Assembly (NCBI GenBank): GCA_041752095.1
Contig: JBGSHQ010000108.1
Location: 1-38,199, forward strand
Source of the DNA: Bdellovibrionia bacterium
Lineage (GTDB): Bacteria; Bdellovibrionota; UBA1018
Direction: 5' to 3'
DNA: 38,199 nucleotides
Numbering within the stretch: the first letter of the stretch is position 1; each line of letters begins with the position of its first letter. Position numbers and translations under genes: made by a program. A model generated the notes under the pieces. It was given only the letters and a program-made list of their open reading frames with translations, was not told the DNA's origin and searched no databases. Positions 5,403-30,243 of this stretch are shown in pieces.

Positions 5403-5431
5403 TCCTCACCTCACTCTTCTATATTTACTTA

Positions 5432-7861: not shown

Positions 7862-7862
7862 A

Positions 7863-7898
7863 CACACTCCGTAAGGAGTGTGGGATTCCTCGTTTTTT
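7863..7898 (+). terminator. Probable leuS terminator
   Basis: 8-bp stem CACACTCC (7863-7870) / GGAGTGTG (7875-7882) with a GTAA loop. The T6 run (7893-7898) starts 10 nt after the stem, so the geometry is imperfect. Confidence 0.5.
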
Positions 7899-7950
7899 AT
7901 CGCGTGTCAGCTTTTTTCGGACATTTTAGGGTATAAGTAAAATTCTTATT

Positions 7951-7990
7951 GAACTAAATCCTGAGTGATTTGATCAAAACACCTGTATCG
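7951..7990 (-). repeat. Copy A of a 3-copy intergenic element (core CGATACAGGTGTTTTGA, inverted orientation)
   Basis: The reverse complement of 7974-7990 is identical over 17 nt to 13019-13035 and 15173-15189. Flanking similarity continues (yyAAAT..TCAG..TTTAGT). It lies 62 nt downstream of the minus-strand GNAT gene. Confidence 0.85.
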
Positions 7991-8013
7991 CGCACTCAAT
8001 GTATCAAACAATC

Positions 8014-8033
8014 GACTTCGGCCAACCGAAGTG
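8014..8033 (-). terminator. Hairpin downstream of the GNAT gene
   Basis: ACTTCGG (8015-8021) / CCGAAGT (8026-8032) with loop CCAA. On the minus strand it is followed by CGATTGTTTGAT, a weak U-tract. Confidence 0.45.
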
Positions 8034-8051
8034 CCGAACTAAACTATTTTT

Positions 8052-8531
8052 CTACGGGGAAAGATCTGATCGCAGTAGTCCATAAACATACTCACTCGCA
8101 GGAATTCCATTCACAAGAAAATGTTCCCTGAGTAGTCCTTCGCGCTTATAGCCAACGCTTTCTAGAACTCGAATCGAATGGATATTGTTTTCATGTACGT
8201 ATGCGGAAATTTTTCGAACGCGTGTTTTTTCGAAAACTTCATGCGAAATCATTTTAACTGCTTTTTTCGCAATTCCCTTTGAGCGTCCTTCAGGCGCTAT
8301 TCCATATCCAATATCGAGGGTCAGCATTTTCTTATTCAAATTAAATAAGCTGATCCACCCGAGTTTGATTCCATCAACCTCTATAAACCACTGAAAAGAC
8401 TCAGCGGTTTCAAAACAGGAAAGATCAGAACTCGACTTCATCAGTCGTTCTCGAAGTTTTTCTATCTCTACCATTTCAAGGGGATTATACTTTTGGGTAA
8501 TCGGATCAGCTACTTTAAGAGCAAGATTCAT
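8052..8531 (-). CDS. GNAT-family N-acetyltransferase (RimJ/RimL-like)
   Basis: ORF 8052..8567. The C-terminal ENNIHSIRVLESVGYKREGLLREHFLVNG pattern is typical of the Acetyltransf_3/RimL group. ATG at 8531 forms an ATGA overlap with the upstream gene's stop, so I prefer that start. Confidence 0.85.
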   Translation of the reverse strand: MNLALKVADPITQKYNPLEMVEIEKLRERLMKSSSDLSCFETAESFQWFIEVDGIKLGWISLFNLNKKMLTLDIGYGIAPEGRSKGIAKKAVKMISHEVFEKTRVRKISAYVHENNIHSIRVLESVGYKREGLLREHFLVNGIPASEYVYGLLRSDLSP

Positions 8532-9724
8532 TTCACCGCTCGCCAAGAAGAAATAAATCTTTCCCACATGATCTCTGGTTCACCCGTGTATCCGATACTA
8601 AACCGAAGGAGTCCCTGAGAGAGTCCGATTTCCTTTTGCTGTTCCGCAGGAATTTCACTCGATGTGCTCTTCGCTGAACAGCTCATAAGTGTTCGCGAGA
8701 ATCCAAGAGAGACGGCGTAGAGCCCGAACTTCACGTCTTGTAACTTTTCCGCAAGTGCCTGCGCTCGCTCGGGAGTTCCACAGTCGACGGTCAGAATTCC
8801 ACCGAAACCATATCGCGCATCGATCACTTGGCGCGCAATCGCCGACTGCGGGTGTGACTTTAGAGACGGATAAATCACTGGAATTTTTTCTGCTTCCATT
8901 CGACCCGCTAGAAATTCTGCCATCTTTGAATGCGCTTGGATTCGAACCGCAAGATGATCCATTCGTAGATAAAGCTCATGCGCTACACGTGGATCCATCA
9001 CAGGTCCGGTAAGCATGACTGCACCGTGATTCACGTCGATGAGAGAAGCAATAAATTCTTCAGGCCCCGCGACAGCACCCGCGATAAAGTCGCTCGATCC
9101 TGAAATATACTTCGTGCAGGAGTGAATGACGATATCGGCTCCATGTTCGAGTGGACGAACCATAAGGGGCGTAAAAGTATTATCGATCACGAGTTTTAGG
9201 ACGTGCTTACGGCAGATTTTCGAAAGCCCACAGATATCGATGAGCGATAAGAGTGGATTACTGAGTGTCTCAGCGTAAATCACTTTTGTTTTTTTTGTGA
9301 TCGCCGCTTCGACCGCTTTTAGATCTGTCATTTCTACGAACGAAACATCGACTCCTCGCGAAGGGAGAAGGTTTTTAAAAAGTGCGTACGTCCCGCCGTA
9401 GACTGTGCGAGAGGAAATCAGATGACCGGGTTCACGAAAAAGTTGGTCGATCGTGCACGCAATCGCAGCCATTCCACTGGCCACTCCGAGCGCAGCAGGC
9501 GCACCCTCCATCGCAGCTAATTTTTTCCCGAAAATATTCACCGTCGGATTTGAATGACGGCTGTAGAGGTAGCACCCCTGGATCTCGCCTTGAAAGGTTC
9601 GCTCCATATCCTTCGGATCGAGAAAGGTCGAAGTCGCGGCCACGTCGATCACGGGAACGACCCCACCCTCTTCTCCAAAATGCTGAATATCGCGGATGGC
9701 CTGTTCGGGATGGGTGGGCTTCAT
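8528..9724 (-). CDS. Cys/Met-metabolism PLP-dependent enzyme (methionine gamma-lyase / cystathionine gamma-synthase family)
   Basis: YSRHSNPT, the DNTF motif and the PLP-lysine motif HSCTKYISGSSD are present. The ~398-aa size is typical of the family. Confidence 0.9.
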   Translation of the reverse strand: MKPTHPEQAIRDIQHFGEEGGVVPVIDVAATSTFLDPKDMERTFQGEIQGCYLYSRHSNPTVNIFGKKLAAMEGAPAALGVASGMAAIACTIDQLFREPGHLISSRTVYGGTYALFKNLLPSRGVDVSFVEMTDLKAVEAAITKKTKVIYAETLSNPLLSLIDICGLSKICRKHVLKLVIDNTFTPLMVRPLEHGADIVIHSCTKYISGSSDFIAGAVAGPEEFIASLIDVNHGAVMLTGPVMDPRVAHELYLRMDHLAVRIQAHSKMAEFLAGRMEAEKIPVIYPSLKSHPQSAIARQVIDARYGFGGILTVDCGTPERAQALAEKLQDVKFGLYAVSLGFSRTLMSCSAKSTSSEIPAEQQKEIGLSQGLLRFSIGYTGEPEIMWERFISSWRAVK

Positions 9725-14236: not shown

Positions 14237-14659
14237 ATGAGTTTATTAAACCTGACTTGGACCCTGCTCGCACTCTCAACATCGGCATTAGCAGAACCCA
14301 GCACCATCTCGATTACCTGTAAAGATGGTAATAAAATCGTCGCGGAAGTCGTCGCCGATATCGAGACGGGCGAAAAAAATTCATTCATTCACTACGGCAA
14401 CGCTAAGCCAACATCACTTGTGATCACCCACCTCGAAGGTGATCCTGAGGCAATGAGAACAGAAAAAGCAATGCTTGAAGTTTACGCAAGTAATGAAAGT
14501 GAAACATCCACTGCACTCCTCACGCTTATGACCCCTAAGGGCAGCAAAAAAGTTACTGATAAAATTTCTACTGCAGGCGCCCTAGAATTCAATGATTCAA
14601 CAACGGATAAGCTCATAAAAATGGATGACCTCACCTGCGAAGTGAAAAACTCTAAATAG
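14237..14659 (+). CDS. Small secreted hypothetical protein (140 aa; Cys near the mature N-terminus and the C-terminus)
   Basis: Signal peptide ...LALSTSALA-EPSTISITC. C-terminus DDLTCEVKNSK. AAGGAGA SD upstream. Confidence 0.6.
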   Translation: MSLLNLTWTLLALSTSALAEPSTISITCKDGNKIVAEVVADIETGEKNSFIHYGNAKPTSLVITHLEGDPEAMRTEKAMLEVYASNESETSTALLTLMTPKGSKKVTDKISTAGALEFNDSTTDKLIKMDDLTCEVKNSK

Positions 14660-14700: not shown

Positions 14701-15117
14701 ATGAAAATCGCAATAATTATTATTTCAGCATTAATTTCGGCAGGTTCTTTAGCCAGTTTTAGCTCGAAAATTTACACATGCAGCGTAAACGACCTCCGCG
14801 AAGAAATCACGATCACCACTAACATGAATGCTGTTGGAGATATCACGAGTGATTATTTCACCATAAGCAGTCCAGGATTATTTTCAGAATTCGATAACCT
14901 CGACTTTGATCTCTCCGTCTGTGCTTACGATGGCATGTATGGAGACGAAAAACTTTCTACCGGAATGCACTGTGAAGGCCAATCTATCGGTGGTGGCTTC
15001 GACTTTAAATCGATTTTCAAAATCCAATCCAACGAAAAAAATCTCGGAAATAACCCAAAAACTTTCAAAGCAACGATCACGAACGGCGCAAAAAAATATT
15101 CCCTTGAATGTAAATAG
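14701..15117 (+). CDS. Small secreted hypothetical protein (138 aa; Cys near the mature N-terminus and penultimate residue)
   Basis: Signal peptide MKIAIIIISALISAGSLA-SFSSKIYTC. C-terminus KKYSLECK. Confidence 0.6.
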   Translation: MKIAIIIISALISAGSLASFSSKIYTCSVNDLREEITITTNMNAVGDITSDYFTISSPGLFSEFDNLDFDLSVCAYDGMYGDEKLSTGMHCEGQSIGGGFDFKSIFKIQSNEKNLGNNPKTFKATITNGAKKYSLECK

Positions 15118-15347: not shown

Positions 15348-18300
15348 ATGCGTTATAACGCGTCGTGGCCATCTGGCCTAAGGGGCGCTCATTTGATCAT
15401 CCGGCTTCCAATTTCATCACTCTTAATCCTATTCATTTCGACCTCTGCTCTCGCAAGCAGCGGTGCGGACGAATATCCAATGGCAATAAAGACGACTGGC
15501 GCACCTGCGATCGATCTCATGTACCAGGGAAAAGCAATCGACCGAGATGAAGCGACAGACATTGCAAAACGTGGCATCGATCTCTCCACTCTCGACTCCG
15601 CTCCACACGATCTTTGGAAACCTGTTTCACTCCCCCTCTCAAACGCTGAAAAATTTAATTACCCACCCGAAGGTGCGCAAGTCGTTTTCCAAAACGATGT
15701 CTCCCCAAAAGGAAATTACCGCGGTCAGGTCACCTACTACGGCCGCCCATTCCGTATCATCATCGATATGGATAACCACCAGTATTTAATGAACGCCGCG
15801 ATGATGCGGAAACTCGGCTACCCCGTCGACATGCCGAAACGTTATCAGCAACTTTCCATTCGGTTTACGAATATTAAAACGATGGAAGGATTCATCGACA
15901 ACTTCGCTTTCGAAACCGGCTTTAGCCGAGACGTTTGGTTAAAAGCCGTCGATGCAAAAAATCTAATCGTCACCCTTCAAGACGTAAACCTCGAATACCC
16001 CCGAATCGATGTTCCACAACTTTACGAAGGAAAGTTCGATACCGACTGGATCGCCGGACGAAGAGCCATGCGTGGCCTCATCATCCCACTCATGCTCCTC
16101 GATATCCGCCTTTCAGAAGACAGCGTAAATATTTTTCCATGGGAATTCTCACGGATTCTCGCTGAACACATCATGCTGAAATATACCGACGTCCAGTGGT
16201 TTAAAGAAACCACCTACGAGGATGCCCGGTGGGCAGCGCGAAAAATCTCCAAACTCACTAAAGAAGATCTCCGACTTATCGTCACAGAAGCTCGGCTTCC
16301 CGAAGACATCTCTGCACTCCTTCTAGAAAAAATCACAGCCCGAAGAAACCACATGGTGCAGATGTTTAACCTATCGGGAGAACTTCCCTCATCCGAAGTA
16401 AAATTACCGTACGTAACTGATCTCACTCTCGGACAAATAAAAAATGGTAAGGCCCTACAAGAAAAATATCCGGGCTATGCCCCCCGTTTCACATTCGGAG
16501 ATCCAAAGTCTCCCCTCGCGTGGAATGAAATTAAACACTATGTGCGCATGCAGGGTATCACGCTCGGAATTAACTACCTCGTCGATAAAGCAAATAAACA
16601 ACTCCAACTTTTCACTCCAAATCAGGGACTAGAAAATCATAAGCAAGATTTTTTAGATGCGATTACAAAACATTTTAAAGAAAAACCAACTGAACCTTAT
16701 GTCGTTCCACTCAAGCCTTGGGCTCAGCCCCTCGCTGGAGTTAATCTCAATGCTTCGCGCTCACTCGTAACAGGAACCTTCTTTGGATCTAACTCGAATA
16801 AAGCACAACTCGTCGACACGTTTAGTGTCGGAGCAAGTGTGGGAGTATTTGGTGGTATCGACGGAAACACTTACTTAAAGAATTTTGGATTTGGCGCGAG
16901 CGTAAACTACCAGAGGAACTACACCCACGTTCGTCCCCTCGTCGCTTCACTTGAAGAAGTAAAAAATGCGAGATGGTCGAGTCTATTCGTTCCTGGATTC
17001 ATGAAAGGGATGTCTAAAGTCCTTAAGTGGAAAATCATTAAAAAGAATTTCGATTTATTCCGCGAAAAATATTATGCGGCCCAAACCGAGTGGATTAAAA
17101 ATTATCCTACTTATAAAGTAAAGTTCGAACAGGACCAAAAAGAGTATGAAGTGACTCGTGCTCGAGTCTGTACCGAACAGGGATATCCACCACCCTATAA
17201 AGACTGCAACCTCGACGAAAAAATTTACCCATCACCCCACTTTCAAGAACAACTCGACACTCGTGCGCTCTACGCAGAGATTATAGGAACACCTCTCCCA
17301 GAAGGGCGTAGCTTACCGCCTTTCACTGACGAGGTGACCGAAGAAACAAAACCAGCAGTCCTTCCAGAAAATTTAGAAGACTCGATCGTCCTCAGCACAT
17401 TAAAAGAATTCTTAGCAGAAATTAAAGACGGTGAAGTATTCACCATTACCGACTCGTTCGTAAATCAGATCAGCCCACAGATTCGAATCCCCCTCACCAC
17501 ACTTATGGGAATGGGAGTAGTCGACCTCCTCGGATCTTCACTCTATAATAAAATTAATCCTTCAGTCGGTGTGAGCTTAACCGGTGAATATGCGATCGTA
17601 AAACGCCTCATGTTAATGCGTCACGGTGATCAGTTCGAAGTTTATGATAACCGAATGAAAACGCGTGCGTTTAGAGCTGGGGCAGATTTCACGGCCTGGA
17701 TCGAAATCGCTAAGATCGCTGCCCAAAAAAAGGGAGGTGACTCAAATACTGACGCTATGATGCTCGACCTCACATCCATCACCGATCAGGATAGAGCGAA
17801 TGATGAGAAGCTGGCAGGAGATCGTAAAAAAATTCTCCAAGCTCTATCAAGCCTTTTTATCCAAAATGAAACCGATGTGGCGAAAGCGGTTGCTCCTCCT
17901 TATGCCGTTCATAACGATCTTAAAGGAACCACAAAAACTGCAAAAGTTCTCATATGGAACTGGACGAATTATGCAGAAACGAACCGGGTAAAGGTTAAGC
18001 CCCCGGTCGATCTTCTAGGTCGTTATGATGCTGAAAAAGAAGCGCGGACCCTCTTTAGCGCTCGAAAAATGAATCTGAACGGAAAAAATCCCTATGGACT
18101 GGTAGGACAGGTGATTAACCGCGCACTCGGAGTGAATGGACTTCTCGATCCAGGTACGAACATGAATCCAGCAGGAAACTTTCTCGGAACATCGAACTGG
18201 AGTCAGGTGCGTGCTGAAGCCGAAGTGACTGAAGGCCGAGATTTTAGCCCGACCCTCACTTTCGAGGAACGCTATGCGGGTTGGTACCTAAAAAAAGATA

Positions 18301-19013
18301 AACTCTTAAAGATTCTCGACCAGTTCCAATCCGAAGTAAACGATCTGAACCTGGGCTCACCTATTTTCCGTAGAGATGTGTTCCAATCCACAGAAATGCT
18401 CCAGGCCTACGACATCCGATCGAACGTCATTCTTTACCAAAGCGGTGTAAAAAAATTCAAAGACATCCTCCTAGGTGCGAAATCGCGTCAAGAGCTTCTA
18501 TTAAACTTCCTGACGATGATGAATCCGGATGACTACCGAAAAAGATGTACGAAATTTTTTGAAAATAAAGGTGTGGAACCTGAACTCGAAGCTTTTGAAA
18601 AAATGAGTAGTGATGATGGGCAAAGAAGTTGGAATCGATGCATTCAGCCTTGGATGCGAAAAATCATGCGCCATGTGAAAAATATTCCGGTGGCGACGGA
18701 TAAAGAAGGGACCATTCAGTGGCTCACCGATACCCTTTTTATTCTTGATAAACACCTTGATCCTTCTCGTTTTCTCGCCCGTATCGGCAAGGAAAACTTT
18801 TTCATGCAAATTAAAGTGAGCGGATTCAGAACGAAGGATGAAAACGGTGACCGAGGAAACGTCGATGACGGGTACGTCACTGACACCATCGGTACGGTCC
18901 AAAAACCGATTTCTCTGGGTGCTTTCAGAGATCTGAAGGTTTTCACAAACGGCGTAGAATGGCAGATTTCTGATTTTGAACTCCAAGCACGCTATTTTGG
19001 AGATGGGTTATGA
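15348..19013 (+). CDS. Very large secreted hypothetical protein (about 1206-1221 aa)
   Basis: Long uninterrupted ORF. ATG 15348 lacks an SD. TTG 15393 is preceded by TAAGGGG at 7-nt spacing and gives a clean signal peptide MIIRLPISSLLILFISTSALA-SS. Several Gly/Ser/Asn-rich beta-like stretches occur (e.g. GASVGVFGGIDGNTYLKNFGFGASVNYQRNY). I recognise no family. Confidence 0.85.
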   Translation: MRYNASWPSGLRGAHLIIRLPISSLLILFISTSALASSGADEYPMAIKTTGAPAIDLMYQGKAIDRDEATDIAKRGIDLSTLDSAPHDLWKPVSLPLSNAEKFNYPPEGAQVVFQNDVSPKGNYRGQVTYYGRPFRIIIDMDNHQYLMNAAMMRKLGYPVDMPKRYQQLSIRFTNIKTMEGFIDNFAFETGFSRDVWLKAVDAKNLIVTLQDVNLEYPRIDVPQLYEGKFDTDWIAGRRAMRGLIIPLMLLDIRLSEDSVNIFPWEFSRILAEHIMLKYTDVQWFKETTYEDARWAARKISKLTKEDLRLIVTEARLPEDISALLLEKITARRNHMVQMFNLSGELPSSEVKLPYVTDLTLGQIKNGKALQEKYPGYAPRFTFGDPKSPLAWNEIKHYVRMQGITLGINYLVDKANKQLQLFTPNQGLENHKQDFLDAITKHFKEKPTEPYVVPLKPWAQPLAGVNLNASRSLVTGTFFGSNSNKAQLVDTFSVGASVGVFGGIDGNTYLKNFGFGASVNYQRNYTHVRPLVASLEEVKNARWSSLFVPGFMKGMSKVLKWKIIKKNFDLFREKYYAAQTEWIKNYPTYKVKFEQDQKEYEVTRARVCTEQGYPPPYKDCNLDEKIYPSPHFQEQLDTRALYAEIIGTPLPEGRSLPPFTDEVTEETKPAVLPENLEDSIVLSTLKEFLAEIKDGEVFTITDSFVNQISPQIRIPLTTLMGMGVVDLLGSSLYNKINPSVGVSLTGEYAIVKRLMLMRHGDQFEVYDNRMKTRAFRAGADFTAWIEIAKIAAQKKGGDSNTDAMMLDLTSITDQDRANDEKLAGDRKKILQALSSLFIQNETDVAKAVAPPYAVHNDLKGTTKTAKVLIWNWTNYAETNRVKVKPPVDLLGRYDAEKEARTLFSARKMNLNGKNPYGLVGQVINRALGVNGLLDPGTNMNPAGNFLGTSNWSQVRAEAEVTEGRDFSPTLTFEERYAGWYLKKDKLLKILDQFQSEVNDLNLGSPIFRRDVFQSTEMLQAYDIRSNVILYQSGVKKFKDILLGAKSRQELLLNFLTMMNPDDYRKRCTKFFENKGVEPELEAFEKMSSDDGQRSWNRCIQPWMRKIMRHVKNIPVATDKEGTIQWLTDTLFILDKHLDPSRFLARIGKENFFMQIKVSGFRTKDENGDRGNVDDGYVTDTIGTVQKPISLGAFRDLKVFTNGVEWQISDFELQARYFGDGL

Positions 19014-22000
19014 TTTTACGGCTTCTTATTTTATTTATCTCAAGTCTCACCGTCGGTGCTCTCACAGCACATGCAGAACAGTTAATCATTACGGGTCGTG
19101 ATACCGAACTCGCCCGAGTCAGCGCGTCCCTAGGAAAAAACTATGCAGTCGAACCCGTATTTAATACGACCGAGAAAGCACTCCTGAAGACGATCGGTAA
19201 ATCCGACCTGTCTTTATCACTGATCGTTCAGCCGATTAAGAAAGGAGCTCCAGGTGATGCTCGATCGATAGATACGATTCGTCTAAAACTAAAAAAATCT
19301 AAAATTCACGTAAAAGTAGAGTCAGATCTCCGGGTAAAACTAAAGTCGACACCAGTAGGAACTGATCCCCTTATAAAAGAACTTTGGGGCATTAAAAATA
19401 ATGAGGGTGTTCATAAACTTTACTTAGATAACTTCACTTCGATCGCCGTAAAAGGCGTAAAAGGTGAAGACGTTAACCTTCCATCTTTATCGAACGAAGG
19501 TAGAGGAATGGTTGTCGCGCTTCTTGATTCAGGATTTGATACAGAACACCCAGATTTAAAAGGTCAGTTCGTCGAAAAAAAAGGTGAATGCGAAAACCTT
19601 ATCAAGTACCAGGAGTGCCTCGCAACCGCTGACCGAAAAGGGGACCCAAAAACGGTTTGCAATTCTTTTCTAAAATTAGACACCGATGGAAACGGTTATC
19701 CCATGGACTGCCATGGATGGAACTTCATTGGTAAAAAGAGCAAAATCCATAACCAGTACGGTGATCCGATTCTTACTGAAGTGATCCCTGAAAAAAGCAC
19801 TGGTCACGGCACTAAAGTCGCTGGAATCGTCGCGGCTGCTTCGAACAACAGTATCGGTGTTCGCGGAATTGCTCCAAAAGCTAAAATTCTTGGCGTAAAG
19901 GTTACCCAGGAACCACCTGGGTCTGAGGCCCAGGGCGTTGCGAGTGAAGAGGAAACTCAGAGTCTCATTTCTTCCGTCGTGCGTGGCATGGTTTACGCTA
20001 TTGGTGAGAAAGCGAACGTGATCAACCTTTCGCTTGGATGGAATGGGCGTGCTGACTCGACCTTCATGCGAGATATCGTTAAAACTGCGCAGGACCAAGG
20101 AATTATCGTCGTCGCTGCTGCTGCAAATGACTCTACTGATGCACTCGTTTATCCGTGTCAGTATGAGGGCGTCGTTTGTGTAGCTTCACATGACCCCGAT
20201 GGAAAACTTTCAGAATTTTCTAATTTTGGCTCCGGTGTCGATATCGCAGCCCCTGGTTTTAGTATTCTCTCCACTTGCCAGATGGATCAGGATCCCTTTT
20301 TCTACACCGACGGTCAGGGATATGATTTTGATAACGGAACCTCGTTTGCCGCTCCTTATACTGCTGGCGCACTAGCGGTATTAAGATCGCAAGGCCTCAC
20401 CGTGCAGGAATCTATTGCGCGACTGCTGGTAGGTGCTCGTAAAAGAAATTACTCAGAGGGAAAAGTCACACTCGCGGGAAACCTCGACGTCAAAGGAGCA
20501 CTGAGTGCTACACCACAGCCGTATATCACTCCTGTAAATAAAGGGATTTATCCTGTCATCTGGGACCGAAAAACTAACACGGCTGATCTCTCTATCGATC
20601 TAAAAAATATTTGGAAAACTGCTGCGACCACATCTGCTACACTCACTCTTTCTGAACGAGATAAAACCTTAAGTCAGATTAAATTGAACTCTTCGAAATT
20701 TAAAATTCAAAACTGGAAATCAGGTGAAACGAAAACGCTCGACACTCAGATTCTGATTACCGATCCACGAGTGACAAGTGATGCAACACTCGTTCTTGAG
20801 ATTTCTTCAGATGGATTTCCAATCGAAAAGATCAGGATTCAACTCCAAATTTCTGTCGTACTCGAAAAATCATCTTTATTACCAAACGCGATTCGACTCC
20901 CGATCCGCGGGACCGTTAATCCAAATGCGGTCGTTTTCACTATCCAGTCGATGGATGGAAAACCTGAGCAAGATTACGTCACCTATGAACTGGCCGATGA
21001 TGCTTGGAAAATTCAGATTCTACGCGAAACTCAAGACTCAACGGGTAACTATTATAGTGCTGGCCCCATTAAGTCGATCACAGCACCCAAGGATGGTTCA
21101 CCTCGAACAGTGCAGAGACTTGACGTGAATCTGGATGGAAAGCCTGACTATGTTTTTACGAGTTTTCTTCCTGGAGAAGAAGAAGATAAAATTCCCTATT
21201 TTCAAATGGATTACCGGGATGCAAACGGCGAAGAAGTTATACCTTCCTACCTCTTTAAAAATCGTTCGACTGTTTTAACCCTCGACCGTTTCCAATGGAT
21301 TCGCGCTGGAAGTCGGCTTGTACCGATTTGGACGGGGGCAGGCATTACGCCCACCTCAGAAAAATCGACGAAGTATGATCCATGGAATCCGACCGCAAGT
21401 GATGATGAAGACTCCGAACCTCGAATCTATTATCACGACCCAGCTACGAGTGATGGGGTCCGCTCTATCGCTCTCCCCGTTAACCCTCTTCTCACTAAAG
21501 ACTGTGTTGTACTCGGGCTCCTCTCCCAAAGCACATCACAGAGAATAAACGGAAAAGTGTCTGTTTTAATTACCCAGACGGATAATTATGTCAGTAACGT
21601 TTTCGTAGGTGAAATCTCATCGCTGAATGATCCAATGAAGATGCTCACAGTCGAGATGCCCAATTATCGAAACTTTAGATCGGTGGAATCTCCAAAGACT
21701 TTCACTCTTGATCCTGCTTCAACTAGTGCAGCTTCCAGTTTTTCTGGAAACTCGGGACTGAATTCACAGAAAATCAGTTCACTCATTCGTACGGGGGATC
21801 ACTATCTCGTGCTTGAACAGCGGATCACTCCACTCGCTCCCACCGAAACCGTTTATAAAACCATTTCTTCATTCGTCGATACATCCACTCGATTTACGGG
21901 AGCATTCGGACAGGGGAACTACGACCTTCTTTACGGAGACTCGACTACGAATAAAATTTTATCAACGTCCCTCCGTAGATACACCTACCTCCCTACTGCA

Positions 22001-22285
22001 CTCTACGAACTGAGCTTCCTCGGCGCTGTTGCAGAGAGCGGCGGCGTTCGCCTCCCAGCGATCCAGATTCCAGATGGATTCGGTGCCTATCCAGGTGCAG
22101 AGGTCATCACCCCGGTTCGTTGGGGTGGCACGAGTATCGAGCTGACCCGTCCTGCTGCACTTCGAATTCAAATGGCATCTGAAGACTGTGACTGGCTCGC
22201 AAAAATGGAACCGAACTCACTCAATCCAGCTCAGGCCGTTTACTTCTGCGGCGACCAGATGATTCGGATTCCTTACCGTTTTTAG
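19010..22285 (+). CDS. Subtilisin-like (S8) serine peptidase with a pro-region and a ~600-aa C-terminal extension
   Basis: ATGA overlap with the upstream gene; GGAG SD. Signal peptide ...GALTAHA-EQ. Catalytic triad motifs: VVALLDSGFD (D173), HGTKVAGIV (H266), GTSFAAPYTAG (S445). Also contains the DTDGNGYPMDCHGWNF insert and one FG-GAP/VCBS-like DVNLDGKPDYVF motif. Confidence 0.9.
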   Translation: MILRLLILFISSLTVGALTAHAEQLIITGRDTELARVSASLGKNYAVEPVFNTTEKALLKTIGKSDLSLSLIVQPIKKGAPGDARSIDTIRLKLKKSKIHVKVESDLRVKLKSTPVGTDPLIKELWGIKNNEGVHKLYLDNFTSIAVKGVKGEDVNLPSLSNEGRGMVVALLDSGFDTEHPDLKGQFVEKKGECENLIKYQECLATADRKGDPKTVCNSFLKLDTDGNGYPMDCHGWNFIGKKSKIHNQYGDPILTEVIPEKSTGHGTKVAGIVAAASNNSIGVRGIAPKAKILGVKVTQEPPGSEAQGVASEEETQSLISSVVRGMVYAIGEKANVINLSLGWNGRADSTFMRDIVKTAQDQGIIVVAAAANDSTDALVYPCQYEGVVCVASHDPDGKLSEFSNFGSGVDIAAPGFSILSTCQMDQDPFFYTDGQGYDFDNGTSFAAPYTAGALAVLRSQGLTVQESIARLLVGARKRNYSEGKVTLAGNLDVKGALSATPQPYITPVNKGIYPVIWDRKTNTADLSIDLKNIWKTAATTSATLTLSERDKTLSQIKLNSSKFKIQNWKSGETKTLDTQILITDPRVTSDATLVLEISSDGFPIEKIRIQLQISVVLEKSSLLPNAIRLPIRGTVNPNAVVFTIQSMDGKPEQDYVTYELADDAWKIQILRETQDSTGNYYSAGPIKSITAPKDGSPRTVQRLDVNLDGKPDYVFTSFLPGEEEDKIPYFQMDYRDANGEEVIPSYLFKNRSTVLTLDRFQWIRAGSRLVPIWTGAGITPTSEKSTKYDPWNPTASDDEDSEPRIYYHDPATSDGVRSIALPVNPLLTKDCVVLGLLSQSTSQRINGKVSVLITQTDNYVSNVFVGEISSLNDPMKMLTVEMPNYRNFRSVESPKTFTLDPASTSAASSFSGNSGLNSQKISSLIRTGDHYLVLEQRITPLAPTETVYKTISSFVDTSTRFTGAFGQGNYDLLYGDSTTNKILSTSLRRYTYLPTALYELSFLGAVAESGGVRLPAIQIPDGFGAYPGAEVITPVRWGGTSIELTRPAALRIQMASEDCDWLAKMEPNSLNPAQAVYFCGDQMIRIPYRF

Positions 22286-22515: not shown

Positions 22516-23298
22516 ATGAAGAGTGTAATGAAGAAAAATTTAACGACGGTGTTAGCAGGATGCCTTACCATTCTCGCACTGGGCGGAGCAGACTGTTCTG
22601 GAACTGGCGGTGTCGGCCGAGGAGGTGGTGGCGTAATCATCATCGATCCTGTCGTCTATGCCTGGTTTGATGTGTATGGAAATGGGTGTGCGACCGCGGG
22701 TCAGGGACCACGTGCTGGATGTAACTTCTACGTCTATGGCCGCGACCTGATTAAGATCATGGACTTCGAAGATCCGTACTTCGAAAACTATTATTGGCCA
22801 GAGTATGACTACTGGACCTATTATCTAAACGGCGTCCTCTATTCTTACGAAGGCTGGGCATGGCTCTCTCCTACCGGAATTCTGTATGATGACTATGGAA
22901 ATGCGCTGAACAAGAAGAAAGGCTCCGGCGGACGAGACATCGTTCGCGATGTCGCCGCTCAGGAAGCAAAAGTCGTTGCTAAAGCAGGCAAGGATCTCGC
23001 AGCAAAATATAACCTCTCTGCAGCTAAAGGTGTACAGATCGCTCGTACCTTAAACGACTGGGCAAAAATCGGAAAATCCCGTGCAAAAACTGAAAAGGAC
23101 TTTGCAGAGTTTTCTCAGAAGCTCTACGGCGTTGATTACCTAAAAGTGAAGAAAGCCGTTCTGGATGCTGCTAAAGGCGATAAGGCTGCGATGAAGCAGA
23201 CGGTTGCTGATGCCGCTAAGAGCTGGGGAACAAACGAAGAAACAATGAAAGAAGTTCTGAAGCGTTGGTATAAAGGCCAAGTTCCAGGGCTTGATTAA
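22516..23298 (+). CDS. Lipoprotein: Gly-rich linker, aromatic-rich middle, Lys/Ala-rich helical tail
   Basis: ORF 22432..23298. ATG 22516 (GAGGAG upstream) gives MKSVMKKNLTTVLAGC with the classic lipobox LAGC. Confidence 0.75.
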   Translation: MKSVMKKNLTTVLAGCLTILALGGADCSGTGGVGRGGGGVIIIDPVVYAWFDVYGNGCATAGQGPRAGCNFYVYGRDLIKIMDFEDPYFENYYWPEYDYWTYYLNGVLYSYEGWAWLSPTGILYDDYGNALNKKKGSGGRDIVRDVAAQEAKVVAKAGKDLAAKYNLSAAKGVQIARTLNDWAKIGKSRAKTEKDFAEFSQKLYGVDYLKVKKAVLDAAKGDKAAMKQTVADAAKSWGTNEETMKEVLKRWYKGQVPGLD

Positions 23299-23365: not shown

Positions 23366-23767
23366 TTATTTCTTCGTATGAAGGTCAGTACGAACACTCC
23401 CGACTTTTCCAGCCATAAACTCTTCTAGGAAATCGATATTCAGTTCTAGCTTTTTCCCCATCCACACGGCGCGTTCCGTATGATCCTTCACCTCTTCGTC
23501 GGAAACAGGGTGAATCAGAATACTAAGACCTTCCCGTTCTTTCTCTAGAAAGGGTGCAAGCTCAGTCGCTAGCTCCGAATGAAAATCAACCTCGAACATC
23601 GGTACGGGATGTGGCCCGATCGGACGGTCAATAAGGCGACTAATCTGGGCACGCCCATCAAACTTCTCAACGATCTTCTTTCGAAACCGGACCGCGATTT
23701 CTCGGATATCTGGTGTGAAATAAATATGGGAATGGGTGTAGGTGGTTTTAAAGGGGAGATTTGACAT
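23366..23767 (-). CDS. DOPA 4,5-dioxygenase-family protein (PF08883-type)
   Basis: HSHIYF near the N-terminus, DRPIGPHPVPMFEVDF, and LSILIHPVSDEEVKDHTERAVWMG match my memory of this small family. Confidence 0.75.
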   Translation of the reverse strand: MSNLPFKTTYTHSHIYFTPDIREIAVRFRKKIVEKFDGRAQISRLIDRPIGPHPVPMFEVDFHSELATELAPFLEKEREGLSILIHPVSDEEVKDHTERAVWMGKKLELNIDFLEEFMAGKVGSVRTDLHTKK

Positions 23768-23854: not shown

Positions 23855-25282
23855 TTAATCGATCGGACTGACGAGTGGGAAGAATCCAACAATTCCACCG
23901 TCATCTTCAGTCGACGTTGTCGTCGGTGCTTCGTCGATTTCCAGATCCTTCACCCGGGACATCGCCGCATTCGATGCATTATAGACAGACATCGTCTTGG
24001 ATAGAACTGCTGCATCGACAGCACGTGCAGGGTTTACGATACCAGACGACTTCACCTTACCGATGAGCCATGGCTTCGTGTCGACCGTACTCATCAGAAT
24101 TTGCTTAATCTCGGAAGGCTTAAGTGCAGGGTTTGCATTCTTAATCGATGCCGCTACACCCGCAACATAGGGAGAAGCCTGAGAAGTTCCAGACATCAAA
24201 CCGAAGTCATTTCCAGGATAAAGAGATTTAATCCCGACTCCAGGAGCCGCCACATCGACCTTTGTTCCGTAGTTCGAGAACGAAGCAAGTTCACGATTAA
24301 AGAGCGTTGCCGCTACTGAGATCGAGTTATCAGTCCCTACGTTAGCTGGGCTAACAGGCTTTGCATCGTTATCACTGCCATCGTTACCCGCAGCAAATAC
24401 GAAAAAGGTGTTAGGAGCGGTATCCACCATCACGCGTGCTCCCGTTAAAATTCGCTGCATATAGAATGCGTTGAATTCTTGGAGTTTAGCAGGATTGCGC
24501 TCTTCTTCTTTAAAGACGAGATTATAAAGCATTTCTACGATTTTTCCGGCCTGTTCATATCCAATCCCAAATGAACCGTTCGCAATATCCGACCCACGCG
24601 CATTCACATAAGTTCCAACCGTTCCGAAGATTTTAGTCTGGAACTTAGCTAAGAGCTGGAGAGCGGCTGGAAAAAGAGCTTCCCGAAGCGAAACGGGAAT
24701 TTTACTTCCACCACCAGGACCCATGTTCATCATCGAACGAAATTCAGGGCTCTGGGCAAACTTCACAGAAAATGGAAGTTTTACTTCAGTTGGAATGATC
24801 TTCACTGCGTAAGGGTGATTCTCGACTTCTACTTTCGTCGAATGTCCGCCTGTGATTCCCGCGACGTGGGTTCCATGTGCGAAATTTCCAAATACTTGGA
24901 GTTCTTTTAGAAAGGTTTCATCAGCGATTTTTGCTTTATACCAGTCTTTATCCGCTTGGTTGGCAGTCTTTTCGAGAGCGCGAACTTGAATTTCAAAAAG
25001 GCGATGAATATCAGCCATATTTGGCTTTAAACGCTCGAGATAGCTCATATCGATGACGAGGTTATTTTTTTCTGCAAAATTATAACCGTAAACATCATCG
25101 ATGACCCCGTTTTTGTCATCGTCCGTTTTATTATCCGGAATTTCCTTCGAGTTCGCATCATACTGAGGGGCAAGCGCCGTGTGGCTATAATCCGAACCCG
25201 AATCGATGATCGCAATGGTTGCGGCGAACGTGGATGCTGGCAGAAGCGCGAATAGCGCGAGTGTACTGAGTGTCTTATTCAT
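23855..25282 (-). CDS. Secreted subtilisin-like (S8) serine peptidase
   Basis: ORF 23855..25300. ATG 25282 (GGGGGGAA SD) gives the signal peptide MNKTLSTLALFALLPASTFA. Motifs: IAIIDSGSD, HGTHVAGI, GTSQASPYVAGVAA. Confidence 0.9.
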   Translation of the reverse strand: MNKTLSTLALFALLPASTFAATIAIIDSGSDYSHTALAPQYDANSKEIPDNKTDDDKNGVIDDVYGYNFAEKNNLVIDMSYLERLKPNMADIHRLFEIQVRALEKTANQADKDWYKAKIADETFLKELQVFGNFAHGTHVAGITGGHSTKVEVENHPYAVKIIPTEVKLPFSVKFAQSPEFRSMMNMGPGGGSKIPVSLREALFPAALQLLAKFQTKIFGTVGTYVNARGSDIANGSFGIGYEQAGKIVEMLYNLVFKEEERNPAKLQEFNAFYMQRILTGARVMVDTAPNTFFVFAAGNDGSDNDAKPVSPANVGTDNSISVAATLFNRELASFSNYGTKVDVAAPGVGIKSLYPGNDFGLMSGTSQASPYVAGVAASIKNANPALKPSEIKQILMSTVDTKPWLIGKVKSSGIVNPARAVDAAVLSKTMSVYNASNAAMSRVKDLEIDEAPTTTSTEDDGGIVGFFPLVSPID

Positions 25283-25416
25283 GAAATTCCCCCCGGTCAT
25301 TTTTAATGACTTTTCATTGAAGCGTTCCTTTGCCCAATGAGTGTCTGAGAATAAGAAAACGGCGGGACCCCAAGGTCAAGCCGCATACCGCCAGAAAACT
25401 GACTCATTTCCTTTTT

Positions 25417-26290: not shown

Positions 26291-28546
26291 TTAAAACTCT
26301 CCTTTAAGGCCGATGGAAGGAATAATCGGTAATCCGGTTACGTCCGCCCGTTTCGAATAATCATAAGCGTAACTCACACTCTCGACATTCTTTCTGTTCG
26401 TGGCGTTTTGGATATCGAGGTAGGCAGTCACGATCATACGGTCATAAATCCATTTTTTATCAACACGAATATCAAGTTGAGTGAAAGCATTCACTCGCTC
26501 ACTATAAAAAGGGCCGCGAATCGGAATATAAGCATCATTATCCGAATCGAATACGGACCCTGTGACAGGGGTCAGAGGATTTCCAGTTACATAACGAAAA
26601 CGTCCAGCAATGCGCCAGTTCCGTGGTAAATCTCTACCTACGATCAGGTTAATATTATGGGTTTGGTCATACTGGGATGGGAACCAGGGTTGGGTTCCAT
26701 CTTTTCGATTACTTCTGGAGAGGGTGTAAGAAAGCCACCCGTTCCATGGATTTGCATCAAGCCGAAGCAGAGCCTCAAGACCATAAGAACGACCTAGCCC
26801 ATCATTATTATAGTATTCAGGCGTCGCGACTCCATTTTTCGTAACATATGCACTCGAAGGAATAATCAGTCGATCGAAATAACGTGCGAAGGGTCCGCCC
26901 TGAAAACTCCATCCGTTCGATGCCCCTTCACGAAAATCACGATCGTATGTGAGTGCAAGGTGGGTAGAGCGCGGAGTGAGGAGATTCGGATTTCCGATCG
27001 TTTCATTCGTTTCTTGCTCGCGCGGCGGCTGGTAGTAGAGTCCTGTTGCAAGCCGGAGTGAACTCCAAGGTGTCATCTCACGGCGAATAGCAAAACGTGG
27101 AGAAATATCCCCACTTTTATTTGTCGTAAAATAATCGTAGCGAAGTCCTGGTTTAATCGACCAGATGGGTGAAAGTTTTAATTCATTATTCCAGTAAGTG
27201 CCGAATTTATGGCTCGACTGACTGACATCGACTCGGCGCTGAGTCCCAGTAGAAAGGGGATTATTTACTCCTCCCTGGCTATAGAAGCTTGGTAAATTTA
27301 GGGAAACATCTGCCCATCCTAAATTATTATCGAGTCCAAAATAACTCGTGGTTCCCTCACCCCATTTTTTTTCAAGTTCGTATCGATTCGTAATCGATAG
27401 GAGTGAAAGTCGAAAATACTGGTCATTCAGCAAGAACTTTATCCAGTCCCGACCGAAACCGAACGATAAACGACTCGTTGTCCTTTCATCATGACGATGC
27501 GTCCACTGAGGGATTAAACGGAGAAATGAAGTCCGGGTCTCAAAACTACCCCGAATTTTAGGATCATTTTCAGGTGAATCCTTTAGAACAAACTCAAAAA
27601 GATCATCCGAAAGAATAAAATCAAATTTAAAATCATCGTTTACTGAAAGTGGCTGATCATAAACAAGAGTAAAATCCTGGAAGGTCGGAGCCGCTGTCAG
27701 GCTAAAGTCTGAGTCTTCCTTAACCTTCGAAACCGCCTTTAAAACATTTCCAATATAACTTCGACGGAGTCCTAGAGTCAGTGAACCTGTTTCACCCACT
27801 GGAGTTTCGATCGCTCCACCAGCGTTAATTAAGTCAGCATAAACAAAACCCTTAAACCGTTCACGGCTCGGCTTCTTCGTCCACGCTCCGACTAATCCAC
27901 CTATCGCACGTCCATACTCGACACTATAACCGGCAGAAAGATAATCGACTCGGTCGAGTGCTTCGGGAAAAACAACAGAGGAAAACCCTCCAAAGTGGAA
28001 GATGATCGGAACTTCATGGCCGTCGATGGTGTATCGCGTATCCTGGGGTGAGGCCCCCTGGATGATCACCTGAGAACTAAAACCTGACGCTCTCGATATT
28101 CCTGGTAGATTCTGAACCGCTTTAATCGGATCGCCATTGGACCCGGGTAATTTAGCAGCGAATGAAGCCTTTAAAGAACGAGTCGAATCATCGCGCTTCT
28201 GCTCTTTCCCGTAAATCGTCGTTTCATAAATCTGATAGGAAACTTTAGGGAGATAAAGAATCCGTGAAGGTCTTAGTTCTCCATTCATATAATAATCGGG
28301 TTCTTCGAGTTTTTCATACCCGGTGAGATTAACGATAAATTTAAAATCGCCTTCAGGAACTTCTGGAAAACGAAAAAGACCGGCACTATCGGTTGTCGCC
28401 TTTAGGGCTTCGGGATTCAGGGATGAAAGGATAAAGACATTCGCTTCTGGGATCGGGGTTTTAGTCCCTTTTTCTAAAAGAGTTCCCTCGATCGAACCTG
28501 CAAAAACTGAAGAAACCAAAAACAACATCACACTTAGAAACATCAT
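26291..28546 (-). CDS. TonB-dependent outer-membrane receptor with an N-terminal CarboxypepD_reg-like domain (Oar-like architecture)
   Basis: Signal peptide, then GSIEGTLLEKGTKTPIPEANVFI...TDSAGLFRFPEVPEGDFKFIVNLTGYE, then a plug and a long beta-barrel ending ...IGLKGEF (terminal Phe). ATGA overlap with tonB. Confidence 0.88.
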   Translation of the reverse strand: MMFLSVMLFLVSSVFAGSIEGTLLEKGTKTPIPEANVFILSSLNPEALKATTDSAGLFRFPEVPEGDFKFIVNLTGYEKLEEPDYYMNGELRPSRILYLPKVSYQIYETTIYGKEQKRDDSTRSLKASFAAKLPGSNGDPIKAVQNLPGISRASGFSSQVIIQGASPQDTRYTIDGHEVPIIFHFGGFSSVVFPEALDRVDYLSAGYSVEYGRAIGGLVGAWTKKPSRERFKGFVYADLINAGGAIETPVGETGSLTLGLRRSYIGNVLKAVSKVKEDSDFSLTAAPTFQDFTLVYDQPLSVNDDFKFDFILSDDLFEFVLKDSPENDPKIRGSFETRTSFLRLIPQWTHRHDERTTSRLSFGFGRDWIKFLLNDQYFRLSLLSITNRYELEKKWGEGTTSYFGLDNNLGWADVSLNLPSFYSQGGVNNPLSTGTQRRVDVSQSSHKFGTYWNNELKLSPIWSIKPGLRYDYFTTNKSGDISPRFAIRREMTPWSSLRLATGLYYQPPREQETNETIGNPNLLTPRSTHLALTYDRDFREGASNGWSFQGGPFARYFDRLIIPSSAYVTKNGVATPEYYNNDGLGRSYGLEALLRLDANPWNGWLSYTLSRSNRKDGTQPWFPSQYDQTHNINLIVGRDLPRNWRIAGRFRYVTGNPLTPVTGSVFDSDNDAYIPIRGPFYSERVNAFTQLDIRVDKKWIYDRMIVTAYLDIQNATNRKNVESVSYAYDYSKRADVTGLPIIPSIGLKGEF

Positions 28547-29196
28547 CGCTCCAAAACAAACTGATAAGCATATCGTATTTTTACCGCGACAGGCTTATCT
28601 TGAACCCTTGCGGGCTTAAATTTAAAATTTCGAACAGCGCTCAGGGCTGCTTCATTCAACCCAAAGCCGGGTCCACTCACCAGAGTCGCCTGGCGAACGG
28701 CTCCTAAGCTATCGATGATGAGATCCATAATCACGCGACCCTGAATATTTGCCTTACGAGCTTCGGGTGGATAAGGAACTCGAAATTCATTCTCGAGGAT
28801 GGGCATCGCACTCACTAAATATTCTTCGACCGGTATGGGGATCGAATCGGCATCGTCCGCTCTTAATTTTTCAGTGTCCGGAGTTTTCGCCACTGTATTT
28901 CCAGCTTTTACCTCGGCAGTAGAAGGATCATTCGTCGAATCCAGAATCGATTTACGAGAGGCTCCAAAAACAGCGCGCTTTTCTGGCTCCTTCTTTTTTT
29001 CAGGAATCGGTTTAGAAAGCTGGATCGCGGGTGCAGCTGCCACCTTGGGTTGCTCATAAACCTCAAAATCCATCGAATCGTTTTGCGAATGAGGAATAAC
29101 CATATAAAGAATAACCAAAAAAAAGAGAAAATGAGTTCCTAGAGAAATTTTCCAGGGACTTAAACGAGCAACAAATGAGTTTGCTCCCGCACTCAC
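28543..29196 (-). CDS. tonB: Energy transducer TonB
   Basis: N-terminal TM segment, a Pro/Lys/Glu-rich linker (KPIPEKKKEPEK), and a C-terminal TonB domain (VPYPPEARKANIQGRVIMDLIID...FKFKPA). GTGA overlap with exbD. Confidence 0.85.
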   Translation of the reverse strand: MSAGANSFVARLSPWKISLGTHFLFFLVILYMVIPHSQNDSMDFEVYEQPKVAAAPAIQLSKPIPEKKKEPEKRAVFGASRKSILDSTNDPSTAEVKAGNTVAKTPDTEKLRADDADSIPIPVEEYLVSAMPILENEFRVPYPPEARKANIQGRVIMDLIIDSLGAVRQATLVSGPGFGLNEAALSAVRNFKFKPARVQDKPVAVKIRYAYQFVLER

Positions 29197-29612
29197 TGCT
29201 TTTCCTTTTCAATTTGGAGCGCAAATCGATTCATGCCCGATTGCTTTAGGAGATCGATCGCACGAACCACGTCCGCATGCCTCGCTTCACCATCGGCAGC
29301 AACGATGGCTTGTGCGGTCGGATTTTTCTCGATCGCTGCCTTCACGGCGGCAGTCACTGCCTCTTCTGTCGCCATTACTCCATTTAATAGAATCTGACCC
29401 TGGCGAGTGACGGCGATTCCAAGCGTTTCCACAGAGGAACCATCGGCACTTGTTGCCTTTGGGAGCTTAAGACCAATCGTGTCTTTAACGAGAGCAGGTG
29501 CCGTGACGATAAAAATCACGAGCAGAACGAGAACCACATCCACAAACGGCGTAATATTAATATCCGAAATGAGTGATTCTTCTTCTGTCGAAGAAGGTAA
29601 ATTTCCGGCCAT
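29193..29612 (-). CDS. exbD: Biopolymer transport protein ExbD/TolR
   Basis: INITPFVDVVLVLLVIFIV TM motif. Size and position match ExbD. Confidence 0.9.
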   Translation of the reverse strand: MAGNLPSSTEEESLISDINITPFVDVVLVLLVIFIVTAPALVKDTIGLKLPKATSADGSSVETLGIAVTRQGQILLNGVMATEEAVTAAVKAAIEKNPTAQAIVAADGEARHADVVRAIDLLKQSGMNRFALQIEKEKQ

Positions 29613-30232
29613 TATCGAGAGTCCTTAAGAATGAACCGAGAAAGATAGAGATCCCGAAGTGATTCACAGTCAGCCACTGCCGACTTCATTTTCTGAAGAA
29701 AAAAGTTATAGCCGACGCTTGCTGGTATTGCGACGAAGAGCCCGACCGCTGTTGCGGTCAGAGCTTCTGCGAGTGAGGCGATGACTTGGTTCATTGCTGA
29801 ACTCGAAGTAGCGAGAGCCGCGAAGGACTGAATAATCCCTAAGACGGTTCCAAATAATCCGATGAACGGAGCGTTCGATCCTAGCGTTGCTAAAATCGGA
29901 AGTCCCACTGAAAGCTCTGAGCGGCGATCAGCGAGGTAAGATTTCTGCGCATATGCAATCGCTTCTGCTGTCTGGGGTGCTGCAATGACTTCACGAAGAG
30001 CAAGCGACTGAAGAGAGTTATTTTCTGCAGCCCACTTTTTAATTCCTGGTAGGTTTTCACTACGGATGAGTTCTCTGACTTCATTAGAACCCTCATTTAA
30101 AAAAAGTTCCTTAAACTTTCTTTTCCGGTCGATCAAAATTGAAACCGACCAAACCGATAGTCCCGCTAAAAAGAGTAAAACCGCTTTCGTAGCCCAGCCG
30201 ATAAATAGGATCCAAAGTGGAGTCGTTGCCAT
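29612..30232 (-). CDS. exbB: MotA/TolQ/ExbB proton-channel protein
   Basis: Three TM segments. LATLGSNAPFIGLFGTVLGII is the conserved ExbB/TolQ signature region. Confidence 0.9.
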   Translation of the reverse strand: MATTPLWILFIGWATKAVLLFLAGLSVWSVSILIDRKRKFKELFLNEGSNEVRELIRSENLPGIKKWAAENNSLQSLALREVIAAPQTAEAIAYAQKSYLADRRSELSVGLPILATLGSNAPFIGLFGTVLGIIQSFAALATSSSAMNQVIASLAEALTATAVGLFVAIPASVGYNFFLQKMKSAVADCESLRDLYLSRFILKDSR

Positions 30233-30243
30233 AGCCTTAAGGG

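Follow-up and report, generated by a model that had tools for sequence, protein, structure and literature searches.

Why should a secreted subtilase be encoded in direct overlap with an exported protein still larger than itself, and what might the two accomplish together? The question is raised by a 38,199-nucleotide stretch of DNA from a Bdellovibrionia bacterium (Bdellovibrionota; UBA1018; contig JBGSHQ010000108.1 of assembly GCA_041752095.1, forward strand), the whole of which we refer to as the window. In it, gene A encodes a very large protein that belongs to no annotated family, gene B an S8 peptidase, and gene C a member of a lipoprotein family (Table 1). A full-text search of the literature found no description of this module. 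What is new is an invariant, translationally coupled combination of a subtilase with a large protein family, usually joined by a lipoprotein family; the S8 domain itself is ordinary.

Coupling, pairing, and phyletic spread

The original prediction, a first reading of the window, had described two open reading frames (ORFs) sharing an ATGA (19010-19013), the stop of A overlapping the start of B, with a GGAG Shine-Dalgarno sequence for B inside the upstream gene; all of these elements were found. The arrangement extends well beyond the window. The spacing between the A stop and the B start lies between -11 and +7 nucleotides (nt) in all 33 measurable loci (ATGA, TAATG, TGATG, or TAAnATG), and in most loci (~30) the Shine-Dalgarno sequence of B (GAGG or GGAG) falls within the equivalent A codons, ..E/D-G-[FLYM]-stop (18990-19013 in the window). 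The conserved end of A, ..Y-[FL]-x-[ED]-G-[FLYM], is coded by ..GAGGG.. or ..GGAGA.., which is also the ribosome-binding site of B. The conservation of the A C-terminus is therefore partly a nucleotide-level constraint imposed by translational coupling, and should not be over-read as a sorting signal. Given coupling this tight in 33 of 33 loci, it is reasonable to expect stoichiometric co-expression of A and B, as the original prediction had proposed from the window.

Pairing of the two genes was assessed in 41 loci, four of which lie on contigs that end at or before the A stop, leaving 37 that are informative. A homologue of B, comprising both catalytic domain and tail, stands directly 3' of A in all 37, and the non-catalytic tail of B is kept wherever A is present. 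This adjacency persists in pairs only 22-30% identical to the window proteins, across several Bdellovibrionota families, and in searches seeded with B every match adjoins an A gene. By the terms of the original prediction, homologues of A that usually lack a neighboring S8 peptidase would have refuted it; none of the informative loci shows this. The A-B pairing is not a product of chance, and it follows from its strictness that the large subtilases of the module should not be studied or expressed alone. The accompanying idea of a two-gene unit is upheld as far as the pair is concerned, but the unit usually comprises three genes (A-B-C or C-A-B): C adjoins the pair in 25 of the 41 loci, just 3' of B or just 5' of A, and the order C-A-B occurs in seven.

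Family A is large. A word-indexed search returned 25 close homologues, and an exhaustive profile search returned 1,088 cluster representatives at E ≤ 1e-3 (434 at E ≤ 1e-30); among the best 150 of the 1,088, most are ~1,000-1,200 amino acids (aa) long, and those below this length are apparently fragments. When one genome of each species was scanned, 32 loci came up, nearly all labeled Bdellovibrionota. Locus labels include Bdellovibrionales, Bdellovibrionaceae, Pseudobdellovibrionaceae, Bacteriovoracaceae, and Oligoflexia, with three loci labeled only as generic Proteobacteria or Pseudomonadota; the named members of family-A clusters are likewise all Bdellovibrionota, apart from generic Proteobacteria labels. 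The module is restricted to predatory Bdellovibrionota. The pair occurs in a cultured strain of Bdellovibrio bacteriovorus (AZI86_15985 and AZI86_15980), and one metagenome-assembled genome, GWB1_55_8, carries at least three copies of the module. Research on predatory Bdellovibrionota treats them as living antibiotics, and the majority of the proteins that they direct at prey are uncharacterised; here, a module that spans several families of the phylum, often in several copies per genome, includes two proteins out of three that have no annotation in the libraries searched.

The three proteins and their surroundings

Both A and B begin with Sec signal peptides, as had been predicted: each has a basic n-region, a hydrophobic core, and an AXA-type site (ALA/SS in A, AHA/EQ in B), as read from the sequence. 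The signal segment is the sole hydrophobic 19-mer peak in A (score 1.9), and a similar N-terminal export segment can be read in 44 of the 44 family-A members inspected. None of the three proteins has a hydrophobic helix beyond its export signal.

Protein A resists assignment, in agreement with the original prediction. No match was found in Pfam, NCBIfam, or PDB sequences, either in single-sequence searches or in searches with profiles and alignment members, and single-sequence scans of PHROGs and PADLOC were empty. The sole library matches are noise, occurring here and there in individual members (RAP, Alkyl_sulf_C, and the like), and a single chance match to MRT4; Foldseek returned only non-significant matches. 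A contains exactly the four cysteines originally counted (608, 620, 1067, and 1098). Conservation is concentrated in the core listed in Table 1, where R471, G476, Q487, D490, G499, R523, and H527 are invariant among 44 diverse family members. The AlphaFold2 model (predicted local distance difference test score, pLDDT, 77.8; predicted template modeling score, pTM, 0.57) opens with ~350 residues folded as an alpha/beta domain; then come, in order, three very long strands, a 50-residue helix, a disordered insert, and eleven more long strands interleaved with helical bundles—some 14 very long strands in all, with ~40% helix. The insert is 58-88% gaps in the family alignment, has a pLDDT of 57-71, and is the point at which BLAST alignments to distant homologues split; model and alignment together suggest two lobes connected by a disordered, variable linker.

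The long strands of A invite comparison with outer-membrane beta-barrels. The best Foldseek matches of the model are TonB-dependent transporters, SusC, and autotransporter beta-domains (probability up to 0.82); the ~14 long strands are antiparallel and, as in TonB-dependent transporters and SusC, form an up-and-down meander of ~650 residues; and many members of the family end in ..Y-[FL]-x-x-G-[FLYM]. However, these matches (PDB, BFVD) are non-significant, with E-values of 0.003 or worse, template modeling (TM) scores of 0.10-0.16, and root-mean-square deviations above 20 Å. Family-averaged strand faces lack an alternating hydrophobic belt: only 2 of the 14 strands have a face above +2, and half of them (at least six) are polar on both faces. 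The strand connections, of 10, 7, 166, 23, 2, 3, 44, 2, 15, 34, 9, 34, and 121 residues, show no alternation of short turns and long loops, and a helix content of ~40% also argues against a barrel. Nor is the C-terminus of A a strand in the model; other members of the family end in R, Q, K, E, or D, and the C-terminal segment overlaps the Shine-Dalgarno sequence of B. Unlike TonB-dependent transporters and SusC, A lacks a Plug domain and hydrophobic belts, and it shows no similarity to them by profile: Pfam signals for Plug, POTRA, and outer-membrane protein domains are absent from the 44 family members, and hhalign of A against the window's own TonB-dependent receptor-like protein (Plug, CarboxypepD_reg) gives a probability of 1.6%. 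On the basis of the hydropathy, connection-length, and hhalign tests, we regard A as soluble and exported, with a fold that is unassigned and probably new. A kinase-like reading of A was also considered, from weak Foldseek matches (E 0.2-1.2) over a stretch of ~300 residues, and was dropped because the family lacks a conserved Lys, Glu, Asp, Asn, Asp pattern.

Protein B is far more familiar. It matches the Pfam family PF00082 (Peptidase_S8) over residues 164-461 (E 2.6e-45; 155.4 bits against a cut-off of 21.8), as do all 39 orthologues. The D173/H266/S445 triad of the original prediction lies at those very positions and is invariant in the 39 orthologues, as is the oxyanion residue Asn373; judged by these residues, the active site is intact. 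The AlphaFold2 model (pLDDT 87, pTM 0.80) retrieves thermitase, subtilisins, and deseasin with Foldseek at E 1e-17 to 1e-23 and target-normalised TM-scores of 0.79-0.85, and the subtilase ASP (PDB 3hjr) appears among the matches at rank 48. This fold search was swamped by matches to the catalytic domain, and a sequence search with the tail alone returned only two proteins. The tail consists, in the model, of a beta-sandwich and a large all-beta domain that is probably a propeller, to judge from its strand count only. The original prediction had noted a single motif in it resembling FG-GAP or VCBS repeats. One DxNxDGxxD motif is indeed conserved (DVNLDGKPDY, with D705, D709, and Y714 nearly invariant), but the family assignment is weak: PF13517 (FG-GAP_3) matches 3 of the 39 orthologues (best E 0.0038) and PF01839 a single one, while B of the window matches neither.

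The predicted pro-region of ~140 residues is likewise present in B, where the model gives it an I9-like fold, but it is not universal in the family. The I9-like propeptide is absent from loci L003, L004, L018, L019, L034, L037, L039, L040, and L041, in which the signal peptide leads directly into profile position ~100-109, just ahead of the catalytic domain. These propeptide-less proteins make up about a quarter of the B orthologues, including the copy in cultured B. bacteriovorus, and an A gene still precedes each of them. They raise the question of how such a subtilase folds and stays latent, and the module may yield both a new protein fold and a new, propeptide-free way of regulating subtilases.

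Gene C, whose start is placed by homology at the ATG at 22516 and not at the TTG (22432) of the ORF list, has relatives with a common layout, in which a short signal peptide that closes with [GA]-C leads into a glycine run, then into a Tyr/Trp-rich domain holding two cysteines, and last into a C-terminal half that is helical. The lipobox cysteine is invariant in 13 aligned homologues, typically as ..[GA]C followed by the glycine run, and UniRef gives the homologue in B. bacteriovorus the name 'Lipoprotein'. By these sequence features, C belongs to a bacterial lipoprotein family, one with no relative in Pfam, NCBIfam, or PDB sequences. Two variants were observed among its homologues. In L036 (7015-7896) an extreme Asp/Gly/Tyr low-complexity run (DDGYDDGYDDGY...) stands in place of the Tyr/Trp-rich domain, and the helical half is kept; in L022 (8591-10406) and L038 (2580-4329) the gene is tandem-duplicated.

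The surroundings of the module offer little sign of mobility. Genes for leucyl-tRNA synthetase and a Cys/Met-metabolism pyridoxal phosphate enzyme (5351-9724) lie upstream of the module; their synteny in the close relative L002 and in the P0014 locus indicates that the module is a stable chromosomal feature and not a mobile island, and the G+C content of the window is uniform at ~46%, which gives no hint of an island. Scans of the window for Rfam families and tRNAs returned nothing, and a promoter and terminator scan found fewer sites than in shuffled controls. Two small ORFs 5' of A, one with a sub-threshold match to a SipW-dependent signal-peptide model, have no homologue beside the module in any other locus and are for that reason excluded from it. 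Downstream, a second S8 peptidase is convergent with the module. Its match covers 380 residues where the profile has 288 positions, which implies an insertion; the gene is syntenic in L002 (61% identity), and two further loci also have an S8 gene close to the module. The cluster around the TonB-dependent receptor-like gene may be an uptake operon.

Table 1. Positions of the module, its parts, and neighboring genes in the window
Feature	Position	Strand	Description
Small ORFs 5' of A	14237-14659 and 14701-15117	+	140 and 138 aa; signal peptides; no Pfam match
Gene A	15348..19013	+	1221 aa, 138.8 kDa, isoelectric point (pI) 8.5, ATG start; exported, member of an unannotated Bdellovibrionota family
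A signal peptide	15348..15455	+	aa 1-36, ...STSALA/SS; Sec-type, as read
A most conserved core	16752..16937	+	aa 469-530, ASRSLVTGT..GS....QLVD...G.F.G...R.Y.HVRP; in the first three long beta-strands of the model
A clade-specific insertion	17016..17375	+	aa 557-676, ~120 aa; low-confidence/disordered; holds Cys608 and Cys620; divides the N and C halves
Shine-Dalgarno sequence of B	18999..19002	+	GGAG, 7 nt 5' of the B ATG, within the conserved last codons of A (..Y-F-G-D-G-L-stop)
Gene B	19010..22285	+	1091 aa, 118.9 kDa, pI 5.8, ATG start; S8 peptidase
B pro-region	19076..19489	+	aa 23-160; I9-like beta-alpha-beta fold at aa 25-105 plus linker, from the order of secondary structure in the model
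B catalytic domain	19490..20524	+	aa 161-505; D173, H266, N373, S445; Cys-rich helical insert at aa 191-234
B beta-sandwich	20525..20869	+	aa 506-620; all-beta, pLDDT above 90 in the model; no Pfam match
B C-terminal all-beta domain	20891..22282	+	aa 628-1091; ~34 strands in the model; one DxNxDGxxD motif at aa 705-714 (nt 21122-21151)
Gene C	22516..23298	+	260 aa; signal peptide, conserved Cys27, Gly-rich linker, Tyr/Trp-rich two-Cys domain, helical C-terminal half
DOPA 4,5-dioxygenase family protein	23366-23767	-	PF08883, E 4.4e-31; between C and the second S8 peptidase
Second S8 peptidase	23855-25300	-	481 aa; PF00082, E 3.3e-35
TonB-dependent receptor-like protein	26291-28546 and 28543-30561	-	751 aa; CarboxypepD_reg and Plug; at the downstream end of a same-strand run of four small ORFs that overlap or abut, with a 5'-nucleotidase-like gene (30558-32477) further upstream

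Proposed mechanism and alternatives

We propose, with a probability of roughly 40%, that A and B, usually with C, form a stoichiometric secreted or envelope protease complex, organised like the dentilisin complex of Treponema denticola without being homologous to it, and used in predation. All three proteins would cross the inner membrane by the Sec route. B, a subtilase with an intact active site, would be made in the window's clade as a zymogen with an I9-like propeptide, and its beta-sandwich and propeller-like tail may provide a docking platform for A. The latter would be the non-catalytic partner, supplied in 1:1 amounts through translational coupling, and may act as a targeting or scaffolding subunit. 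If PrcA of dentilisin is any guide, A is probably cleaved by B, the likeliest site being the exposed variable linker between the halves of A. The lipoprotein C may tether the complex at the predator envelope, or help to assemble it there, before release; the complex would then attack prey-envelope proteins during the early intraperiplasmic stage.

The predatory role proposed here draws on a possible counterpart in B. bacteriovorus HD100, where Bd2429, Bd2428, and Bd2427 may correspond to A, B, and C. Bd2428 is an S8 protease of 1033 aa (114.9 kDa), Bd2427 an uncharacterised protein of 301 aa, and Bd2429 an uncharacterised protein with 43 unique peptides, from which it should be very large; Bd2430, also uncharacterised, has 342 aa. 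In size and order, Bd2427-Bd2429 fit the module, and they come nearest to the L039/L040 subfamily (B of 1033 or 1038 aa, C of 325 or 306 aa, A of 1152 aa in L040), whose members—all three L040 proteins and the three L039 genes, with a truncated A—belong to families A, B, and C by profile searches. In a time-course proteome, Bd2428 and Bd2429 climb from 30 min, peak between 45 min and 2 h after prey contact, and drop by 4-5 h, and Bd2428 and Bd2430 share an abundance cluster (PMC12546842). Bd2428 has further been reported in the prey-directed 'kiss of death' secretome (PMC11003981) and in host-independent culture supernatant (PMC3898049), and as up-regulated at 30 min and among the finds of a transposon screen for predation-deficient mutants (PMC2797640). 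Cluster look-ups of the module families contained no HD100 members, and Bd2427-Bd2429 are not listed in the transposon-sequencing supplement; the cut-off of 1e-60 in the full-length B search probably excluded the HD100 orthologue. If the orthology is true, the module is a secreted system of early predation, implicated by genetics and open to direct tests in a tractable organism.

Several points weigh against the proposed complex. The HD100 correspondence is an unverified lead, drawn from sizes and gene order and not from sequence. Bd2427, moreover, peaks later (2-3 h) than Bd2428 and Bd2429 (PMC12546842). C is absent from roughly one locus in three, among them the whole of a short-B clade (L003, L018, L019, L024, and L034), so it is not essential to the core mechanism; in the window, its stretch at 22516-22596 includes GGADC, an atypical lipobox with Asp at -1 before the conserved cysteine, and a second, canonical LAGC is found at Cys16. 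The interaction of A and B is one that we infer from genetics only, and the data do not distinguish a scaffold role of A from a substrate role. B also falls far short of the cut-offs of known families: it scores 71.9 bits against the PrtP model NF033595, which has a cut-off of 300, and 159.7 bits over residues 264-505 against its best-scoring NCBIfam model, that of the Type VII mycosins (TIGR03921), which has a cut-off of 278.75. A and C match no NCBIfam or Pfam family, the comparison with PrcA and PrcB having been made through these family libraries.

The same genetic coupling could serve a different purpose. It is possible, although we think it somewhat unlikely, that A is an effector pro-protein—for instance, a membrane-active or lipid-binding beta-sheet protein—for which B is the dedicated maturation protease, the tail of B doing no more than recognising A, with the variable linker and the conserved C-terminus as candidate cut sites. 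Such a relationship would suit the strict 1:1 coupling and the co-conservation of the B tail with A, as well as several features of A itself: very long amphipathic strands, some with one hydrophobic face, an exposed disordered linker, a conserved C-terminal motif, and weak Foldseek echoes of long-stranded beta proteins. A precedent exists in the subtilase SphB1, which matures the adhesin FHA (PMC8167434). However, A resembles no toxin, pore-former, or lipid-transfer family in the libraries searched, the Shine-Dalgarno sequence of B that is embedded there accounts at least in part for its C-terminal conservation, and a processing enzyme has no need of equimolar production. An extended version of this idea is doubtful: A would be the first member of a new fold and a predator-specific, protease-armed effector co-secreted into the prey periplasm, where the subtilase would dock through its propeller tail, cleavage would activate A, and the long amphipathic beta-sheets would engage prey membranes or lipids. 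The result would be a self-activating, two-component attack system, unparalleled outside Bdellovibrionota, that would have expanded to many paralogues in each genome for different prey.

The propeptide-less orthologues suggest another role for A, namely to fold B or keep it latent, as a kind of external chaperone, inhibitor, or factor for self-protection that acts in the predator periplasm until export. Bdellovibrio does use dedicated self-protection proteins against its own secreted hydrolases (PMC4686830). A is translated first, with B coupled to it, and the attraction of the idea lies in the roughly one in four B orthologues that lack the I9-like propeptide, normally needed for subtilase folding and latency, and nevertheless keep A. 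Yet clades whose B bears the propeptide keep A unchanged, and Bd2429, should the HD100 lead hold, is abundant in predation and not a minor regulator. The ~1,100 conserved residues of A, in two large domains, also go far beyond known subtilase inhibitors and chaperones. We consider this role quite unlikely. Least supported of all, and improbable given the tests of the strand pattern described above, is an integral outer-membrane barrel that would export B or anchor it at the cell surface, in the manner of two-partner secretion or a split autotransporter. The roles that had originally been listed for A—substrate, scaffold, inhibitor, anchor, or export partner—are therefore narrowed only in part.

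Comparison with known systems

Among characterised subtilases, the Type VII mycosins share with B an S8 catalytic domain of similar sequence and, as we propose B to act, the situation of a protease within a larger envelope machine. B differs from them in having no C-terminal membrane anchor and no ESX genes nearby, and its 590-aa beta tail is absent in mycosins.

SphB1 of Bordetella is an autotransporter; its gene neither adjoins fhaB nor is coupled to it, and FhaB is an adhesin of the beta-helical TpsA type. What it may share with the module is a dedicated subtilase that acts on one very large exported partner (PMC8167434). A, by contrast, carries no TpsA or haemagglutinin signal. A parallel for latency is provided by the subtilase ASP of Aeromonas sobria with its external chaperone ORF2, and by PopC of Myxococcus with its inhibitor PopD, in both of which folding or latency needs a separately encoded, adjacent partner. 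ORF2 and PopD are small and unrelated to A, and PopC and PopD are cytoplasmic before secretion.

Within the phylum itself, Bd2269 of B. bacteriovorus HD100 is a stand-alone secreted subtilase that is involved in prey exit and lyses Escherichia coli from within; it peaks at 3 h and was complemented from its own 196-bp upstream region, with no partner gene described (PMC12546842). At 56.6 kDa (PMC3898049), it resembles B in being a secreted S8 protease, in its own case used against prey, whereas B is twice as large and always partnered.

Dentilisin is the only well-studied parallel, and the complex and the cleavage proposed here draw on an analogy with its organisation. The prcB-prcA-prtP operon of T. 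denticola encodes a lipoprotein (PrcB), an accessory protein (PrcA) that is cut in a PrtP-dependent manner, and an S8 protease (PrtP), which form an equimolar complex; PrtP carries a pro-region at its N-terminus, and its expression depends on its C-terminal domain (PMC8167434). There are clear differences. PrcA is half as large as A, the bacteria belong to different phyla and live differently, and all three dentilisin products are acylated, whereas here only C has a conserved lipobox cysteine and A and B have AXA-type signal peptides. Since A and C have no detectable homology to PrcA or PrcB in the family libraries searched, and B falls below the PrtP and mycosin cut-offs, the parallel is organisational and not evolutionary. 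In organisation, both systems combine a small, lineage-restricted lipoprotein, a larger accessory protein without homologues elsewhere, and an S8 subtilase with a pro-region and a C-terminal domain, and the succession of lipoprotein, accessory protein, and protease in dentilisin is the same as the C-A-B order of seven Bdellovibrionota loci.

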